Shown: in pieces, positions 5,650 through 33,504 of the stretch
How the letters are laid out: every line of letters begins with the position of its first letter
Numbering within the stretch: position 1 is the first letter of the stretch
DNA from: Pyrinomonadaceae bacterium
Lineage (GTDB): Bacteria > Acidobacteriota > Blastocatellia > Pyrinomonadales > Pyrinomonadaceae
Assembly (NCBI GenBank): GCA_021463165.1
Contig: JAJTWY010000011.1
Coordinates: 4,072-68,071, forward strand
Length of the DNA stretch: 64,000 nt
Direction: 5' to 3'
The notes under the pieces: generated by a model
The model's database searches: none
What the model saw: only the letters and a program-made list of their open reading frames with translations
Told to the model about the DNA's origin: nothing
Position numbers and translations under genes: made by a program

Positions 5650-5667
5650 AAGAGCGGTGGCATCTTT

Positions 5668-5740
5668 GCCACGAATGGCTCAAATATCACGAATGATCCT
5701 TTGCTCGTGCTATTCGCGCCATTCGTGGCTAAACTATTTT
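5668..5740 (+). terminator. long-loop hairpin plus T-run downstream of ald (terminator-like)
   Basis: A 12/12 inverted repeat pairs GCCACGAATGGC (5668-5679) with GCCATTCGTGGC (5718-5729). The 38-nt loop contains a second CACGAAT/ATTCGCG pair. TAAACTATTTTT follows. Confidence 0.4.
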
Positions 5741-14358: not shown

Positions 14359-15828
14359 TTACTCAGCGATCTCCGTGAGCTCTGCGGCCAACAGTTCTAC
14401 AAAATGTGTGCGAAAAAGCTGTCGCAGCAGCAGCCGTTTGTATTGCTCGGTGCCGCGAACGTCCGAGATCGGCGCGATCTCGGACTGCATTATTTCGTTG
14501 GCGGCTGTAATAGTTTCCTCAGTGATTTCTTTGCTGCGTAAAAAAGCTGACGTTTCTTTCAAATACAACGGAATCGGCGCGACACCGCCGGCGGCGAGGT
14601 GAACGGATTGGAGCGCAAGCGTCCCGCTTGCATCCGTCGTCACGCTCGCAGACATCGCAGTGTTGACCGTCGCGATGTCGAGATACGTGCGTTTGCAGAC
14701 CTTTTCAAAATTAAATCGGAAGTCGCCGGACGGTTTTTTAAACCTAACCTTCGTGATAATTTCTTCGGGCGATCTAGCGAGTTGTTTGTAGCCGAGATAA
14801 AAATCTTTTAATGCTAACGTTCGCGTATCGCCCTTACAAACGTGCGGGCTTGTGCATAGTTCGATCTCAGCGTCGAGGGCGAGGAAAAAAACTGTCATGT
14901 CGCCGATCGGCGAGGCGTTGACGAAGTTGCCGGCGAGCGTCGCCATGTTGCGGATCGGCGTCGATGAGACGAGCTTTAAGTGTTTGTAAAGATCCGGGAA
15001 AACGGCGTTCATTACGTCCGACTCGAGCAGATCGGTGACGGTCGCCGATGCGCCGATCTCGATGAATTCGCCATTCTCGCGGATGCCGCGAAGCTGTTCG
15101 TCGTAAAGCAGGGGCGTTGCGTAGGATTCGGCCATATGCTCGGGCTTCTGGACGTACACGTCAGTTCCCCCGCCAACAAAGGGCACACTCCCTACCGGTC
15201 GTGTTTCCGCCTTTGGGGCCGAGTCATTTAGGTCACCTAAACGTTCCGTAATGTAAGCAAAATATTCGGGGACAAACTGTTTACCGTTAGCTGCTAATTG
15301 TTCACTGACTCTACATGCTGCTCGCTCGATCGACTTGTAGCCGGTGCAGCGGCAGATGTTGCCGTCGATGGCAGAGATGGCGGCTTCTTTATCAGCCGTT
15401 GGATGGTTACCACTGAGCAGAACGTCCTTTGCAGTTTGCGGACGAGGGCGTCCGCGTTCCGACAGGCAGAATCCGGTCAGCGACATTACAAAACCAACGG
15501 TGCAAAATCCGCATTGCGTGCTGCTCTCGTCAACCATTGCTTGCTGCACGGGCGTGAGCGAGCCGTCGGCGGGATTTATGCCTTCGATGGTGACTATGTG
15601 TTTTCCAGCCGCGTTCGCGAGCGGCATCAAACACGAAGTCATCGTGCGATAGCGAACTTTGTCGCCCATCAATTCACCGACGAGTATCGTGCACGCGCCG
15701 CAATCGCCCTCGCGACAGCCGATCTTTGTGCCTTTCAGATCTTTGTGATAACGAACAAAATCGAGCACGGTCTCGCCTGCGGGCTGATCGGTCGAGATAT
15801 CTTCGTTGTTGAGGATGAATGAGATCAT
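14359..15828 (-). CDS. xdhA: xanthine dehydrogenase small subunit (2Fe-2S plus FAD-binding domains)
   Basis: 489 aa. The plant-type ferredoxin cluster is GCREGDCGACT. The second cluster is CGFCTVG...CRCTGY. The FAD-binding region has GGGTDV. Confidence 0.9.
   Translation of the reverse strand: MISFILNNEDISTDQPAGETVLDFVRYHKDLKGTKIGCREGDCGACTILVGELMGDKVRYRTMTSCLMPLANAAGKHIVTIEGINPADGSLTPVQQAMVDESSTQCGFCTVGFVMSLTGFCLSERGRPRPQTAKDVLLSGNHPTADKEAAISAIDGNICRCTGYKSIERAACRVSEQLAANGKQFVPEYFAYITERLGDLNDSAPKAETRPVGSVPFVGGGTDVYVQKPEHMAESYATPLLYDEQLRGIRENGEFIEIGASATVTDLLESDVMNAVFPDLYKHLKLVSSTPIRNMATLAGNFVNASPIGDMTVFFLALDAEIELCTSPHVCKGDTRTLALKDFYLGYKQLARSPEEIITKVRFKKPSGDFRFNFEKVCKRTYLDIATVNTAMSASVTTDASGTLALQSVHLAAGGVAPIPLYLKETSAFLRSKEITEETITAANEIMQSEIAPISDVRGTEQYKRLLLRQLFRTHFVELLAAELTEIAE
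15185..15207. repeat. solo 23-nt arm of the palindromic element also found in mpl
   Basis: ACACTCCCTACCGGTCGTGTTTC. Its reverse complement differs by 1 nt from each of the two arms at 24194-24216 and 24260-24282. It lies in frame in xdhA, where it encodes ETRPVGSV. Confidence 0.8.
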
Positions 15829-21768: not shown

Positions 21769-23826
21769 ATGAAACGATTCCTTGCTTTCCTGTTGTTGAT
21801 CAATTTGCTGGTATCTGCCGCCTTCGCTGACGAGGGCATGTGGACCTTTGACAATCCGCCGCTAAAACAGTGGAAAGAAAAATACGGTTTTGAGCCGTCG
21901 AAGGAATGGCTCGACAGGGTGCGGCTTGCGTCGGTCAAGTTTCCGGGCGCGTCCGGCGTATTTGTCTCGCCAAATGGTTTGATCGCGACCAATCACCACG
22001 TTGCATCAGGATTTATCGAGCGGCTTTCGAGCAAGGAACGCGACCTGCTAAAGAATGGGTTTTACGCGAAAACGCAGGCAGAGGAACTGAAGGTCCCCGA
22101 CGGAAATGTGCAGATTCTGCACTCATACGAAAACGTTACTGAACGTGTTCACAGTGCGGCGAGGGCCGGGTCCACCGACGCCGATGCGGCAGCAAAACGC
22201 ACGGCAGAGATCGCGGCGATCGAGAAAGACTGTCCCGCGGGCCTTCGCTGCGAGGTAGTTTCGCTCTATAGCGGTGGCGAATACTGGAAATACCGTTTCA
22301 AACGCTACACGGATGTGCGACTGGTGATGGCTCCTGAGGAGCAGGCGGCCTTCTTCGGCGGCGATTATGACAATTTTGTCTTTCCGCGGCACGATCTCGA
22401 TTTCACGTTCGTTCGCGTTTACGAAAACGACAAGCCGGCAAGCACGCCTAACTATCTTAAATGGTCGGCGACCGGTGCCCCGGAGGGTGAGTTCATCATC
22501 GCCTCGGGTTATCCCGGCTCGACGGCGCGGCTTTTGACCGTGGCACAGCTTGCCTATCAACGCGATATCGGCAACCCGCTGCAGGAAAAGGTCTGGAAAA
22601 CCCGTCGCAAAGCCCTTGAGGATTATTCGAAACTCGGTGCCGAGCAGCTTCGGCAGGCAAATCCCGGAATGAGATCGTTGGCTAATTCGCTCAAACGTCT
22701 CGAAGGTCAGCAGAACGGGCTTCTGAATCCGCGGAATTTCGCCAAGAAAGAAGCAGAGGAGAAGGACCTACGCGACAAACTTGCAGCGAAACCCGATCTG
22801 AACAAGCAATATTCACCTGCATGGGAAGCCATAGCCAAGGCGTACAGCGAACTGCCGTCAAAGGCAAACCAGATCGCGTTTTCGAGCCTTGCCTCGTCGC
22901 GTCTTGCGACAATTGCCCAGCAGATCGTCACTTACCATATCGAGACCGCGAAGGCCGACGGCCAGCGTTATCCTGAATTTCGCGAATCCCGGCTGGACGC
23001 CTTCAGGTCGTCATTGCTGTCGCCCGCACCTAGTTACAGCGAAATGGAACAGGCGGCGCTGACGGCGTGGATGGCGGAAGCCCGCAGCGTGCTCGGTGCG
23101 AACGATCCGTTCATCAAGGCCGCGCTGGGCGAGGCCGAGCCGGCGGAAGTTGTCGGACGAGCGATCCGCGAGACGAAACTGCTCGACCCGGCCGCGCGGA
23201 AGGCATTGCTCGACGGCGGTGCTGCCGCGGTTGCCGCGTCAACCGATCCATTGGTCACGCTTGCTCGTCGTGTCGAACCGGTGATCCGTGAACTCCGCTC
23301 GTGGAGCGAAAAGAATATTCTGGCGGTCGAAACGTCAAACGGGACGAAGATCGCTCAGGCCCGTTTTGCCGTTTACGGTAAAAATATGCCGCCAGACGCC
23401 AATTCTCACCTTCGCCTGTGTTACGGCGTCGTCAAAGGTTACGAGGAAGATACGACGCTGGTACCTTATCGCACAACCTTCTTTGGCCTGTACGATCGGG
23501 CGTTGAGCTTTGACGAAAAAGATCCGTTCCACTTGCCCGAAAGCGTCAAGAACGCCCGCAGCAAGATCGACCTTGCCACGCCGCTCAACTTCGTTTACAC
23601 CGCCGACACCATCGGCGGCAACTCCGGCTCACCCGTCGTCAACCGCCGCGGCGAAGTCGTCGGCCTAAACTTCGACTCGAACAACCAAAAACTCTCCAAC
23701 CGCTACTGGTACATCGAAGAAAACGAAGGCTCCCGCGCCGTCGGCGTCCATTCAGCGGGGATCCTCGAGGCGCTGCGGAAGATCTACGGTACAGAGGCAC
23801 TCGTTTCGGAGCTGCTTGGTTCATAG
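21769..23826 (+). CDS. S46 family dipeptidyl-peptidase (DPP7/DPP11-like)
   Basis: 685 aa with a signal peptide followed by DEGMWTFDNPP. It has TNHHV, and the catalytic Ser context GGNSGSPVVN lies near the C-terminus. Confidence 0.85.
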   Translation: MKRFLAFLLLINLLVSAAFADEGMWTFDNPPLKQWKEKYGFEPSKEWLDRVRLASVKFPGASGVFVSPNGLIATNHHVASGFIERLSSKERDLLKNGFYAKTQAEELKVPDGNVQILHSYENVTERVHSAARAGSTDADAAAKRTAEIAAIEKDCPAGLRCEVVSLYSGGEYWKYRFKRYTDVRLVMAPEEQAAFFGGDYDNFVFPRHDLDFTFVRVYENDKPASTPNYLKWSATGAPEGEFIIASGYPGSTARLLTVAQLAYQRDIGNPLQEKVWKTRRKALEDYSKLGAEQLRQANPGMRSLANSLKRLEGQQNGLLNPRNFAKKEAEEKDLRDKLAAKPDLNKQYSPAWEAIAKAYSELPSKANQIAFSSLASSRLATIAQQIVTYHIETAKADGQRYPEFRESRLDAFRSSLLSPAPSYSEMEQAALTAWMAEARSVLGANDPFIKAALGEAEPAEVVGRAIRETKLLDPAARKALLDGGAAAVAASTDPLVTLARRVEPVIRELRSWSEKNILAVETSNGTKIAQARFAVYGKNMPPDANSHLRLCYGVVKGYEEDTTLVPYRTTFFGLYDRALSFDEKDPFHLPESVKNARSKIDLATPLNFVYTADTIGGNSGSPVVNRRGEVVGLNFDSNNQKLSNRYWYIEENEGSRAVGVHSAGILEALRKIYGTEALVSELLGS

Positions 23827-23887
23827 CGTCCGTTAAAACTGGTTTCACCCAAGCGGGCCGTCCACAACAAGCGGCCCTAAGTTCACT

Positions 23888-25390
23888 ATGCACTATCACT
23901 TGATCGGAATTTGCGGTACGGCGATGGCTTCGCTTGCCGGAATGCTGCAGGCTCGAGGACATAAGGTCACCGGTTCGGATAGAGACGTCTATCCGCCTAT
24001 GTCCACGCAGCTCGCGCAGCTGGGCATAGAGATCGTGCAGGGCTATCAGGCCGAGAATTGTGAGATCGACCGAGACGTGACGGTCGTCGGCAACACGATA
24101 ATGCGAGGGAATCCCGAACTGGAAGAGGTCTTGAACCGGAAAATGTTGTATCGGTCGCAGGCTGAGACGGTAAGGGACGTGTTCATAAGGGCAGAAACAC
24201 GACCGGTCGGGAGTGTGTCCCGGGCTGGCGAGAAGCCACTTGGCGTAAGTTCTGAAAATACACTCCCTACCGGTCGTGTCTCGGCCAAACGCTCGCTGGT
24301 GGTTGCGGGGACACACGGAAAGACGACGACGACATCGCTTGCGGCGTGGATGTGCGAGGTTGGCGGGCTCGATCCGACGTTTTTGGTCGGCGGCGTGGTT
24401 CAGAATTTTGGCCAGAGCTTTCGCGTGACTGACAGCGACTATTTTGTAATCGAGGGCGACGAATACGACACGGCCTTCTTTGATAAGAAGCCGAAGTTCA
24501 TGTCGTATCTGCCGGAGATCGCGATCGTAAACAATATCGAATTCGACCACGCCGACATCTACAAAGACCTTGACGCTATCAAATGGCAGTTCTCGCGGCT
24601 GATGAATCTTGTTCCCGGCAACGGCCGCCTGATCTGCGGCATCGATTCGCCCGTGGTCGGCGAAGTTCTCTCCTCGATGGCTGGGAAGCTCTACACTACC
24701 GTCGAGACGTTCGGGCTGAGCGAAGGGGCAAAATGGCAGGCTCGCGATATAGAATTCACCTCGGACGGCACGCGGTTCAAGGTATTTTGCGAAAGCGAAC
24801 CGTGGGGTGAATTCACGACGAATATGTTTGGCGAATTTAATGTTCGCAACTGTTTGGCGGTGATCATTGCGGCGGACGCCTGGGGCATTTCGCGCACAAA
24901 GATGCAGGAATGCTTTGACACATTCGAATCGGTGAAGCGACGTATGGAGGTTCGCGGCGTGGAGCGAGGCGTGACCGTCATCGACGACTTTGCCCATCAC
25001 CCGACCGCCGTCGACGAAACTCTGAAAGCTCTCAGGCAAAGGTACAAAAACAACCGTCTGATCGCCGTCTTCGAACCGCGCTCGCGTTCGTCGCGGCTGT
25101 CGGTATTCGAAGACCAATACCGCAGAGCGTTCGCACACGCCGACTACGTTATCATCACCGCCGTTTTCAACCCCGAAGACGCCTTGCGTTTCGGCTCGAC
25201 GCTCCTCGACGTTGGCAAACTGATCACGGACATCGCCGCCACCGGCAAAACTGCCATAACTCTCCCAGATGCCGACGCCATCGTCGATCACCTCGCCCCG
25301 CAAATGCAGGAAGGCGACGTCATCGCCGTGATGTCGAACGGCGGGTTTGGGGGCATACATGAAAAGATCTTGAATGTCCTGACGCATTGA
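23888..25390 (+). CDS. mpl: UDP-N-acetylmuramate:L-alanyl-gamma-D-glutamyl-meso-DAP ligase (murein peptide ligase)
   Basis: The N-terminus is MHYHLIGICGTAMASLAGML..GH.VTGSD..VYPPMS. It has the P-loop AGTHGKTTTT, then EGDEYDTAFFDK, DDFAHHPTA and MSNGGFGGIH. At 500 aa it is about 30-40 aa longer than I recall for typical Mpl, because of the insert at 24191-24286. Confidence 0.9.
   Translation: MHYHLIGICGTAMASLAGMLQARGHKVTGSDRDVYPPMSTQLAQLGIEIVQGYQAENCEIDRDVTVVGNTIMRGNPELEEVLNRKMLYRSQAETVRDVFIRAETRPVGSVSRAGEKPLGVSSENTLPTGRVSAKRSLVVAGTHGKTTTTSLAAWMCEVGGLDPTFLVGGVVQNFGQSFRVTDSDYFVIEGDEYDTAFFDKKPKFMSYLPEIAIVNNIEFDHADIYKDLDAIKWQFSRLMNLVPGNGRLICGIDSPVVGEVLSSMAGKLYTTVETFGLSEGAKWQARDIEFTSDGTRFKVFCESEPWGEFTTNMFGEFNVRNCLAVIIAADAWGISRTKMQECFDTFESVKRRMEVRGVERGVTVIDDFAHHPTAVDETLKALRQRYKNNRLIAVFEPRSRSSRLSVFEDQYRRAFAHADYVIITAVFNPEDALRFGSTLLDVGKLITDIAATGKTAITLPDADAIVDHLAPQMQEGDVIAVMSNGGFGGIHEKILNVLTH
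24191..24286. mobile_element. MITE-like palindromic element inserted in frame in mpl
   Basis: The left arm is GAAACACGACCGGTCGGGAGTGT (24194-24216). The right arm is ACACTCCCTACCGGTCGTGTCTC (24260-24282). They are 21/23 complementary and separated by a 43-nt core. The 96 nt equal 32 codons (AETRPVGSVSRAGEKPLGVSSENTLPTGRVSA). Confidence 0.7.
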
Positions 25391-26111
25391 CTCGTTCATT
25401 TGTTTCACCCAAAAGGTGCCCCGATCGGGCGTTGATTCCCCGCAAGATCAACTCCAGATCGCGATCGTTCCGTGGGACGCTTTGAGTGTGGCGATCTCGT
25501 AACTATCATCAAACACAACAAGTTAACCACTATTCCGAACCAGCCCTGTCCCAAGTGTCCCACCCCTGTCCCAGGCCTTCGGTGGGACAGTTAACATATT
25601 TAGCATCAGTGAGTTACGGCGAATATTCGTCCGATCTTCGCCGGATTTTAAAAAAAGCACGTTACTTTGTCTTACACCTGCCATAATGTGCAACATTGTA
25701 TCATACATAGGACACAAAAGTCAATGATCGGCTTCCCGGCCAAGGTCCTGCCGGCTCGCCCCAACCCAGGCGTCCTCGTCGAATTTCAGCCCTCCTGGAA
25801 GCAAAAGGGCCACCACCGTCGCCGCCTTATAGAACGTAAGGTTTTACGGCATTCACCAAAAGCTCTCGGATTTTTTGAGAGTCGAAAGTGTAATAGAATA
25901 GGGGCGTCCTTGGGGCGACAGCGATTCGTAAATGGCAACAGGTCAGGTCAAGTCCCGTCACGTGTTTGATGGATCTGCTTTTCAAAGATACGGGGAAGAG
26001 GGATTTATCCCGAAACCGATCCGCGAGTTTCCGTTGACCCATTTATTAAAGATCGCGGATGCCGAAAAATGGTAGCGTTGATGGTAAAATAAGCTTGAAA
26101 AGGAGGCATAA

Positions 26112-31779: not shown

Positions 31780-31813
31780 CAGGATGAATAGGATCTCTTC
31801 ATCCTGTTTATCT
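31780..31813 (+). terminator. hairpin plus T-rich tract between the DUF4912 and GH57 genes
   Basis: A 9-bp stem pairs CAGGATGAA (31780-31788) with TTCATCCTG (31798-31806) around a 9-nt loop. TTTATCTT follows. Confidence 0.45.
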
Positions 31814-31845
31814 TGTCGATCCTGTTAAGATCTGGTGGACCATTT

Positions 31846-33504
31846 ATGCCGGCTGGATACTTTAGTCTGATCCTTCACGCTCACCTCCCGTTTGTCCGGC
31901 ATCCAGAATATCCCGAATTCCTTGAGGAAGATTGGCTCTACGAAGCTATTACCGAGGTCTATCTTCCGCTTATCTTTATCTTCCAATCGCTGCATGAACA
32001 GGACATCAAGCCTCGCCTCGCGATGAATGTTTCGCCGCCGCTCTGCGAAATGCTTGCCGACCCGCTGCTTCAGGAACGCTATACGCGGCATATCGAAAAC
32101 CTGCTCGAACTGGCGCGAAAGGAAGAGCACCGAACCCGCAAGGAAGATCAGCCGTTTCACGCCGCCGCGAAGATGTATGTCGAGAATCTCTCGGCCTCGC
32201 TCGATCTTTGGAACGACCGTTACAACCGCAACCTTGTGAATGCCTTTCGCGAACTGCAGGACGAAGGCGTGTTAGAGATCATCACCTGCTGCGCGACGCA
32301 CGGATTCTTGCCGCTCATCTCGACCCGCGAATCCCGCCGGGCACAGGTCGAGATCGCGGTCGCAAATTATAAGAAGCATTTCGGGCGACAGCCGCGCGGG
32401 ATCTGGCTCGCCGAGTGTGCGTATGAGCCGGGCGTCGAAGGCCTCCTGGAGGCGAACGGGATCGAATATTTCATCAGCGATACCCATGCGATCCTTTACG
32501 GCGATCCGCGGCCGCGTTACGGCGTCCATGCTCCCGTTGTATGCCCGAACGGTACTGCGGTCTTCGCCCGCGACGTCGATACCAGCCAGCAAGTCTGGTC
32601 GGCCGAGATCGGCTATCCGGGCAACGACCTCTACCGCGAGTTTTACAGGGATATCGGCTGGGATGCTCCGTATGAATACTTAAAGCCTCACCTGCATTCC
32701 AGTGGTGAACGCCGCCACCTCGGCCTGAAATATCACAGGATCACCGGCCGGGATGTGCCGCAAAACCGCAAGGAACCGTACATTCCCGCTCTGGCCCGCG
32801 ACAAGGCGGCTGAGAACGCAATGCACTTCATCGGTGAGCGGATAAACCAGGCCCACAAACTGCGCGAAACATTCGAGGGACATCCGCCGCTCGTTGTAAG
32901 CCCTTATGATGCAGAGCTTTATGGCCACTGGTGGTTTGAAGGGCCCCAGTTCATCGATTTCTTTTTCCGGAAGATCCACTTTGACCAGAACGAGATCGAA
33001 TGTATAACGCCGGGTGATTTTCTCGACAGCGATCTCCCTATCCAGGTCCAGCGCCCGACCGCCTCGAGCTGGGGCGAGGCGGGCTACTACAAGGTCTGGA
33101 TCAACGAAGGCAACTCCTGGATGTACCCATACCAGCACGACGCCGAGCGAAAAATGACCCAGTTCGCCGACCGTTATCGCGAACCCGGCGACCTCGAACG
33201 GCGTTTGCTGGACCAGCTTGCTCGCGAACTGCTGCTTGCTCAATCCTCCGACTGGGCGTTCCAGATCTACCAGGGAACGACCGTCGAGTATTCATCGCGG
33301 CGGTTCCAGTCGCACATCCAACGCTTTAACATGCTCGCCGAGATGCTCGACCAAATGCAGAAGCCCGCGCGTAAGCAAGGGCGTAACACTCAAGACGCAG
33401 TTTTGACACCCGCCCAACTCGATCTGCTCGCCGAAATAGAATCCCGCGACAACATTTTCGCCGAGATCGACTATCGGGTTTACTGCACCGTGCCAGCAGC
33501 CTAA
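31846..33504 (+). CDS. GH57 family 1,4-alpha-glucan branching enzyme (GH57 plus DUF1957)
   Basis: GYFSLILHAHLPFVRHPE...EEDWLYEAITEVYLPL and WLAECAY and YDAELYGHWWFEG are GH57 hallmarks. I prefer the ATG at 31846. The ORF track starts at TTG 31813, inside the hairpin. Confidence 0.85.
   Translation: MPAGYFSLILHAHLPFVRHPEYPEFLEEDWLYEAITEVYLPLIFIFQSLHEQDIKPRLAMNVSPPLCEMLADPLLQERYTRHIENLLELARKEEHRTRKEDQPFHAAAKMYVENLSASLDLWNDRYNRNLVNAFRELQDEGVLEIITCCATHGFLPLISTRESRRAQVEIAVANYKKHFGRQPRGIWLAECAYEPGVEGLLEANGIEYFISDTHAILYGDPRPRYGVHAPVVCPNGTAVFARDVDTSQQVWSAEIGYPGNDLYREFYRDIGWDAPYEYLKPHLHSSGERRHLGLKYHRITGRDVPQNRKEPYIPALARDKAAENAMHFIGERINQAHKLRETFEGHPPLVVSPYDAELYGHWWFEGPQFIDFFFRKIHFDQNEIECITPGDFLDSDLPIQVQRPTASSWGEAGYYKVWINEGNSWMYPYQHDAERKMTQFADRYREPGDLERRLLDQLARELLLAQSSDWAFQIYQGTTVEYSSRRFQSHIQRFNMLAEMLDQMQKPARKQGRNTQDAVLTPAQLDLLAEIESRDNIFAEIDYRVYCTVPAA

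Follow-up and report, generated by a model that had tools for sequence, protein, structure and literature searches.

Short palindromic repeats that travel with Y1-type HUH transposases have been described in Proteobacteria and in Acidobacteria. In the proteobacterial system of repetitive extragenic palindromes (REPs), their inverted doublets (REPINs) and REP-associated tyrosine transposases (RAYTs), short imperfect palindromes occur in high copy number, pair into doublets with variable spacers, and surround a Y1 gene of conserved chromosomal position, with transposase types and repeat types cognate to one another (Nunvar 2010; Bertels & Rainey 2011, PMC3116915; Ton-Hoang 2012). The "REPtron-like" class 3 TnpA-Y1 group, which is found in Acidobacteria, was described from 24 proteins. 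Its genes have on their flanks several small, atypical hairpins whose 5' foot is CnGA; in Solibacter usitatus, these hairpins reach ~600 copies (Quentin et al. 2018, PMC6006769). In the accessible part of that account, none of the 24 is stated to come from Blastocatellia or Pyrinomonadaceae, and no mention is made of copies lying in frame within genes, of a bias in reading frame, or of filled sites shared by orthologs. Palindromes lying in frame within genes for functional proteins are known from the Rickettsia palindromic elements (RPEs; Ogata et al. 2000) and the GTAG REPs of Opitutus terrae (Di Nocera et al. 2013, PMC3733652); dimers encode 20 to 30 amino acids for which a role as loops or linkers has been proposed, and some genes are hit twice. 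Here, we describe a 97-nt inverted-repeat element in the mpl gene of a Pyrinomonadaceae bacterium, at positions 24190 to 24286 of a 64,000-nt stretch referred to as the window (assembly GCA_021463165.1, contig JAJTWY010000011.1, positions 4,072 to 68,071 of the forward strand). We consider it highly probable that this element is a REPIN of a large repeat family of Pyrinomonadaceae/Blastocatellia (Acidobacteriota), probably copied in trans by a class 3 Y1 transposase and tolerated as a loop in Mpl.

The host gene, mpl (23888 to 25390, plus strand), encodes a 500-aa UDP-N-acetylmuramate:L-Ala-gamma-D-Glu-meso-DAP ligase. This assignment is based on its open reading frame (ORF), Pfam matches to Mur_ligase, Mur_ligase_M, and Mur_ligase_C, best PDB matches to the Mpl structures 3HN7 and 3EAG, the name Mpl carried by its orthologs in source databases, and a score of +0.16 in a self-trained codon model. 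A preliminary description of the locus had reported a palindromic insert of 32 codons with 23-nt arms in front of the P-loop. This was borne out: the element adds 32 residues, AETRPVGSVSRAGEKPLGVSSENTLPTGRVSA, directly N-terminal to KRSLVVAGTHGKTTT, and the 23-nt arms are contained in inverted-repeat arms of 27 nt (24190 to 24216 and 24260 to 24286) that are 89% complementary and separated by 43 nt. The left arm holds the 10-nt palindrome CGACCGGTCG at 24200 to 24209, also noted earlier. In terms of the repeat family, the left REP arm is GGCAGAAACACGACCGGTCGGGAGTGTG (24190 to 24217, plus strand), recognized by arm search and family consensus; it has a C[AG]GA foot, a GGTC loop versus GGTA in the family, and the reading AETRPVGSV. 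The right REP arm (24259 to 24286), whose minus-strand sequence is GGCCGAGACACGACCGGTAGGGAGTGTA, reads TLPTGRVSA on the plus strand and shares 75 to 96% identity with its counterparts in the mpl inserts of orthologs. The doublet spacer (24218 to 24258) is not conserved; in DNA comparisons, orthologous doublets have ~14 to 20 nt of unrelated sequence in its place. In frame, the insert reads AETRPVGSV...TLPTGRVSA, and its designation as a doublet of REP arms draws on the inverted repeat, its fold, its absence from most orthologs, and the predicted disorder of its product.

As RNA, the mpl region folds at -56.6 kcal/mol (z = -5.4 versus shuffled sequences), and as single-stranded DNA it folds at -27.5 kcal/mol on either strand, far better than shuffles. 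No Rfam family scored above threshold for the element; the subthreshold matches were eukaryotic microRNA hairpins, which we judged spurious, as any long hairpin yields them. The antisense strand also encodes ETRPVGSV, as had been pointed out previously: an antisense ORF at 24046 to 24288 begins MAETRPVGSV because the palindrome reads alike on both strands. This ORF was ruled out as a gene, given that the codon model is negative on the antisense strand and that the shared peptide is a by-product of the palindrome. A much longer antisense ORF of 589 aa (23639 to 25408, minus strand) spans all of mpl with a codon score of -0.03 and is almost certainly a noncoding shadow ORF; it exemplifies why long ORFs in this genome are no proof of genes.

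The arm belongs to an abundant dispersed family. In a scan of genome contigs covering one genome per species, the exact 20-mer arm was found in at least 118 stretches, and all 80 matches listed were from metagenome-assembled genomes (MAGs) of Pyrinomonadaceae, "Chloracidobacterium," or Blastocatellia. A viral contig collection gave no match to the 20-mer, by which a phage origin of the arm was ruled out. Within the window, the 20-mer occurs three times versus 0.01 expected, the third copy being at 15185 to 15204. A larger set of loci (888 kb in total, labelled with L-numbers) was fetched for counting and contained 197 arms, along with 220 copies of the head GGCRGAAAC compared to ~14 expected. 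The approximate arm consensus is (A)GGC[A/G]GAAACACGACCGGTAGGGAGTGTG[C/T][C/T]. Copies occur as solo arms, as tandem arrays, and as inverted doublets whose spacers measure 14 to ~110 nt and in which the partner arm is often a variant. The earlier view of a selfish, dispersed, RPE-like repeat thus found support in further copies in the window and in related genomes, a sizeable share of them intragenic and in frame. Neither of the outcomes that had been set to count against it, namely, a homologous segment in unrelated phyla or a lack of further arm copies, was encountered.

Each arm (~28 to 30 nt) consists of an unpaired 5' foot, GGC[A/G]GAAAC, which includes C[A/G]GA, followed by a small imperfect hairpin in which a 2x2 G.A internal loop separates a 4-bp stem from a 2-bp stem capped by a GGTA loop. 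This single proposed structure was evaluated on 35 distinct arms chosen solely by the presence of the head and the GGTA motif. Pairing was observed in 91.4% of cells, compared to 75.9% in shuffled sequences (0 of 500 shuffles reached the observed value) and 25 to 66% in slid controls. Changes on both sides of a pair numbered 29 versus 11.1 expected, with AU<->CG exchanges at pair 10-25 and GC<->CG exchanges at pair 14-21. The pairing excess and the compensatory changes together indicate that each arm is a small conserved hairpin after an invariant unpaired foot.

Two further features of the arms and their surroundings were observed in the fetched loci. Canonical arms form tandem arrays with a period of ~75 nt at L043:2340-4020, L098:1768-2075, and near position 5222 of L098, with low-complexity sequence between the arms (GGATTTTGGATTTCCGATTT...). 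A reading of these as arrays resembling clustered regularly interspaced short palindromic repeats (CRISPR) was rejected, as the "spacers" are low-complexity repeats that resemble one another (GGATTTTGGATTT...) and the arms are dispersed. In addition, heptamer-like simple repeats (CCAAAAT/GGATTTT) adjoin many arms and, in orthologs of the xdhA-like gene discussed below, are translated as SAIRNPQS or SEISNLQS.

The family is associated with a Y1 HUH transposase gene. At locus L046, an ORF bracketed by two inverted arms matches the Pfam family Y1_Tnp (PF01797; E = 7e-9, 36.3 bits versus a cutoff of 23), and it is frameshifted in its MAG. A full-length homolog of 172 aa was found by tblastn at L090, with one arm 16 nt upstream on the plus strand and an inverted arm downstream on the minus strand, and intact copies on long contigs (L128 and L129) have the same arm-flanked layout. 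In all four loci, canonical or variant arms lie on both sides of the transposase gene, and three of them (L046, L128, and L129) share the gene order RuvC, a ~300-aa gene, the transposase, and FAA hydrolase (fumarylacetoacetase). Around a paralog with 44% identity at L079:2700-3600 lie five copies of a cognate arm, CAGAACCACCTGC[GGTA]GCGGGTGGTT, which has the same foot and GGTA loop as the canonical arm and a different stem; this arm (CAGAACCACCTGCGGTAGCGGGTGGTT) is a strong hairpin as single-stranded DNA, at -10.1 kcal/mol. Since the paralog comes with its own arm type, transposase protein and repeat covary. In all, three to five arms surround each transposase gene, and the foot C[AG]GA is found in every arm type. 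Searches returned 1,167 transposase homologs of ~172 aa, of which the named ones are from Pyrinomonadaceae/Blastocatellia; IMG labels many of them RayT. The L046 and L090 proteins, both 172 aa, have the motifs NHVH and YVLFGQ and the motifs NHSH and YTINGQ (Y----Q), respectively.

These features allow the system to be placed among those already described. With class 3 TnpA-Y1, as characterized in the available portion of PMC6006769, it shares an acidobacterial Y1 HUH protein (~172 to 178 aa, with NHVH and Y----Q motifs) and a gene with several such CnGA-footed hairpins around it; HuH and Y motifs, length, and flanking hairpins all agree, as judged by these described features. In a broad sense, it also has the hallmarks of a REPtron, namely, short palindromes in many copies, inverted doublets with variable spacers, and a Y1 gene flanked by the same repeats. 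The RPEs and the Opitutus REPs, in contrast, are unrelated to the Pyrinomonadaceae arms in sequence family, tag, and host phylum. The arm lacks the CGTC tag and its listed matches are all acidobacteriotal MAGs, so that behavior alone is common to the two groups; moreover, the RPE/CGTC repeats are without an associated transposase (PMC3733652), whereas the Pyrinomonadaceae arms have one.

The preliminary description had also called the element similar to a miniature inverted-repeat transposable element (MITE). MITEs derive from insertion sequences with DDE transposases and carry terminal inverted repeats and target site duplications. The element resembles bacterial MITEs such as Correia/NEMIS, RUP, and Nezha in being short and nonautonomous, in having inverted-repeat ends, and in lying in or beside genes. 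It differs from them in that single arms stand as units of their own, with solo arms being common, in its association with a Y1 HUH enzyme, and in its lack of a duplication: no direct repeat flanks 24190 to 24286 (ATAAG|GGCAG...CGGCC|AAACG). A DDE-type MITE was ruled out on these three grounds, and the inverted arm doublet, together with a Y1 HUH gene flanked by the same arms, instead identifies the element as a REPIN. The palindromic repeat of the earlier proposal stands; a MITE-like nature in the sense of terminal inverted repeats, target site duplication, and DDE ancestry does not. The earlier description had added that this repeat family was not known to have been described. In a literature search of incomplete coverage, no description was found of this Pyrinomonadaceae family or of its intragenic behavior, while the kind of system is already on record (PMC6006769, PMC3733652). 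Class 3 RAYT-like REPIN is the name that fits the element best, and it represents a known kind in a lineage for which we found no description.

Under this assignment, a 172-aa Y1 HUH transposase (class 3 TnpA-Y1, RAYT-like), encoded amid the same arms at what appears to be a conserved position, probably copies the family in trans. By analogy with IS200/IS605 and the RAYTs, the enzyme would recognize folded arms on single-stranded DNA. In mpl, the doublet may have inserted into the linker that joins the N-terminal Rossmann-type domain to the ATPase domain with its P-loop, or may have persisted only there. The frame in use contains no stop and the length keeps the frame, and the insert is therefore expected to be translated as a disordered loop of ~32 aa that Mpl tolerates.

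Structural comparison points in the same direction. PDB entry 3HN7 aligns to Mpl residues 1 to 94 and 133 to 498 and has ~7 residues where this protein has 38, in line with the prior expectation that Mpl/MurC proteins carry only a few residues at this site. In an AlphaFold2 model built from 48 sequences (mean predicted local distance difference test score [pLDDT], 69.6; predicted template modeling score, 0.70), residues 103 to 132 have pLDDT values of 27 to 36 and no secondary structure, and fall between a helix at 91 to 100 and the strand running to the P-loop. The P-loop itself, G141 to T148 (GTHGKTTT), is invariant in the 48-sequence alignment. The insert is thus most likely a tolerated disordered loop, as predicted here and as first suggested for a working enzyme, and it would be neutral for Mpl function.

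The mpl insertion is one of many in coding sequence. We considered an arm intragenic if its ORF codes on both flanks by the self-trained codon model; 47 of 197 arms (24%) fell into this category compared to 57% of random positions, a depletion of ~2.4-fold. The arm family is thus depleted in genes but far from strictly extragenic. The intragenic arms occupy 36 ORFs from 25 host-gene families, and several orthologous sites are filled in more than one MAG. Pfam confirmed all five sampled hosts to be real enzymes: GcvP, phosphomannomutase, a flavin monooxygenase, an M28 peptidase, and MutS2. The arms in phosphomannomutase and MutS2 lie between Pfam domains; the monooxygenase arm and one M28 peptidase arm lie within the domain match. 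The most heavily colonized host seen was an aminopeptidase N-like ORF of 988 codons at L008, which contains two complete heterodimer doublets (GGNASGNERV...NTLPTGRVSA, twice) as well as a peptide of a second arm type (MQKPAREQG...ALANARASA).

Frame usage of these copies is strict. The canonical arm is open in five of its six frames, yet its 28 intragenic copies are all confined to two of these, 19 in the sense direction (xAETRPVGSV) and 9 in antisense (xTLPTGRVSA), at ~18 independent host-gene sites by hand count. The arm of the L079 type, found in xdhA orthologs as SEPPAVAGG, keeps the codon register of the canonical arm with respect to foot and loop. A bias this strong, confined for canonical arms to AETRPVGSV and TLPTGRVSA and maintained in register by a different arm type, might suggest that the 32 residues are a selected protein module conferring a new property on Mpl and other enzymes, with the DNA repeat being secondary. 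We regard this as very improbable: approximately three-quarters of the copies fall outside the intragenic category, and many can be seen to lie between genes; what is conserved is the nucleotide sequence, third positions included; the peptide occurs in functionally unrelated proteins, mostly in linkers; and in Mpl it is predicted to be disordered. The simplest reading of the frame bias is survivorship, in which insertions adding a stop or a Cys-rich or hydrophobic stretch were purged.

Several points weigh against the assignment as a whole. Relative to proteobacterial REP/REPIN-RAYT systems, the 5' GT[AG]G head that marks classical REPs is absent from the arms, GGTA occurring only as the hairpin loop, and with ~24% of them intragenic, the arms are confined to extragenic DNA far less strictly. 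The transposase falls below the NCBIfam cutoffs, scoring 19.2 versus 80 bits with the curated RayT model (NF047646) and 31.8 versus 55 bits with the IS200 model (NF033573). The head and the RayT model both place the system outside the classical class 2 RAYT/REP group. No Y1 transposase gene was found within the window by tblastn; the link between transposase and repeat is associative, with mobilization suggested by it. Judged by energy alone, one canonical arm makes a weak hairpin (-3.9 kcal/mol, z = -0.9); single-arm energy is uninformative for this arm, and support for the hairpin was taken from covariation. The intragenic fraction depends on a home-made codon model, with the Pfam check covering five hosts only. 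The AlphaFold2 model is of moderate quality at its mean pLDDT of 69.6, making the exposed loop a prediction, and retention of the insert in the Mpl protein is deduced from the DNA.

Additional REP arms are found in frame elsewhere in the window. A solo canonical arm, GGCGGAAACACGACCGGTAGGGAGTGTG (15184 to 15211, minus strand), identified by arm search, ORF, and Pfam, lies in an xdhA-like gene (14359 to 15828, minus strand) with 2Fe-2S and FAD-binding domains and encodes KAETRPVGSV just before the FAD-binding GGGTD motif. The linker before GGGTD is hypervariable, as xdhA orthologs (450 to 557 aa) hold canonical, variant, or unrelated repeats there, and the site is also filled, by the same or a variant arm, in many of them. 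The same gene contains an arm of a second type, GCACAAGCCCGCACGTTTGTAAGGGC (14830 to 14855, minus strand), which encodes CTSPHVCKG and is common to most orthologs. Another arm of this type, GCAGAAGCCCGCGCGTAAGCAAGGGCG (33357 to 33383, plus strand), encodes (M)QKPARKQG within the BE_C domain of a glycoside hydrolase family 57 (GH57) branching-enzyme gene (31813 to 33504, plus strand). The second arm type (GCAGAAGCCCGCGCGTAAGCAAGGGC) is a real dispersed family, with 40 matches versus 1 in shuffled sequence. In antisense it gives the peptides ALTDVRASA and ALADARACA, which are present in other Mpl orthologs, and no cognate transposase was identified for it. Outside the arm families studied here, the window contains an unrelated 28-nt inverted repeat at 5665 to 5732 (TTTGCCACGAATGGCTCAAATATCACGA / TCGTGCTATTCGCGCCATTCGTGGCTAA; 86% complementary, 12-nt loop).

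To follow the mpl site across species, 120 orthologs were surveyed and DNA was compared at loci L119 to L127. Most relatives are empty: ~85 of the 120 (76 to 85% identical, 467 to 470 aa) read ...EFIR-GRRSLVVAGTHGKTTT. A subclade marked by DVFIR carries inserts of 10 to ~45 aa at exactly the same position. Canonical doublets with unrelated 14- to 20-nt spacers, some with decayed left arms, are found at L119, L120, L121, and L123. A solo right arm is present at L124, a solo arm of the second type at L125, two or three second-type arms in tandem at L126, and a heavily decayed version with simple repeats at L127. Occupancy of the mpl site thus extends beyond this genome: across a Pyrinomonadaceae subclade, the site holds sequence derived from REPs, in forms that vary between species. 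These sequences come from MAG and metagenome assemblies, where repeats can cause chimeras, and many transposase contigs are very short, which raises the possibility that misassembly at a repeat placed the palindrome in mpl. We give this explanation next to no credence, as protein P0001, which bears the insert, was recovered from separate Logan assemblies with 100% identity across it, and at least nine other independent assemblies have related inserts at the same mpl codon, all in frame.

The history of the site can be read in two ways. All filled alleles carry DVFIR and nearly all empty ones carry [DE]EFIR, a distribution that fits a single ancestral filled lineage. In this reading, the site has probably been filled since before the divergence of a species subclade, with spacers and some arms having since decayed or been replaced. 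Alternatively, the mpl linker (and that of xdhA) may be a preferred target that has received repeated, independent insertions, the near-consensus arms being young. The variety of occupants in different species, from canonical doublet to solo arm to second-type solo and tandem arms in mpl and from canonical to variant to unrelated repeats in xdhA, would be expected of such a target, and REPs are known as targets of further insertions, at least in the accessible part of PMC1525189. The arms are also much nearer consensus than synonymous divergence predicts. However, each mpl arm bears private substitutions, and together with the DVFIR distribution this leaves repeated insertion a tenable but less favored account, one that concerns only the history of the site. 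Exact insertion boundaries could not be resolved between the empty allele at L122 and filled alleles because their flanks are too diverged.

Arm conservation at this site is the second matter on which readings diverge. Between species, right arms in mpl are 75 to 96% identical and left arms 71 to 89%, compared to a third-position identity of 36 to 52% at shared four-fold codons; conservation of the arm DNA is about equal to that of the first and second codon positions of the enzyme. The mpl arms are thus either constrained as nucleic acid or renewed by reinsertion or conversion, and whatever holds them near the family consensus would act on DNA (or RNA) rather than on protein. One possibility is that the arms serve the host as nucleic acid, through an mRNA hairpin affecting mpl translation or stability or through a protein-bound DNA structure, with the peptide being incidental. 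Conservation far above synonymous sites in a segment encoding a predicted disordered loop is compatible with such a role, as are the very strong RNA fold of the doublet and the roles in mRNA stability and termination with which REPs elsewhere are credited (PMC3733652, PMC12306157, in the portions available). On the other hand, the same arms are found, in either orientation, both between genes and within many genes unrelated to one another, which speaks against a role tied to a particular gene; decay of spacers and of some arms is unhindered, most orthologs lack the insert, and Rfam holds no match above threshold. On balance, we find a host function of this kind improbable. That intragenic arms are actively kept at consensus, whether by selection on the hairpin or by transposase-driven recopying or conversion at occupied sites, is a speculative reading to which we assign somewhat more weight, while still thinking it unlikely.

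The assignment of the mpl element as a REPIN has consequences for annotation. The repeats explain much of the length variation among orthologs (466 to 532 aa for Mpl and 450 to 557 aa for XdhA), and they will seed spurious "conserved peptide motifs" as well as assembly breaks. For protein engineering, the sites that arms occupy show where many enzymes permit insertions. The two aspects that we single out for follow-up are arm conservation at orthologous intragenic sites and strict frame usage. Orthologous intragenic arms that are better conserved than synonymous sites offer a tractable case of REP upkeep by selection, recopying, or both. In all, these results link the poorly characterized class 3 Y1 transposases of Acidobacteria to in-frame REP colonization of genes in Pyrinomonadaceae, a soil lineage that is abundant and largely uncultured. 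Were the arms indeed actively maintained, the class 3 Y1/REP system would be a long-lived, lineage-wide generator and maintainer of disordered linkers in many housekeeping enzymes.

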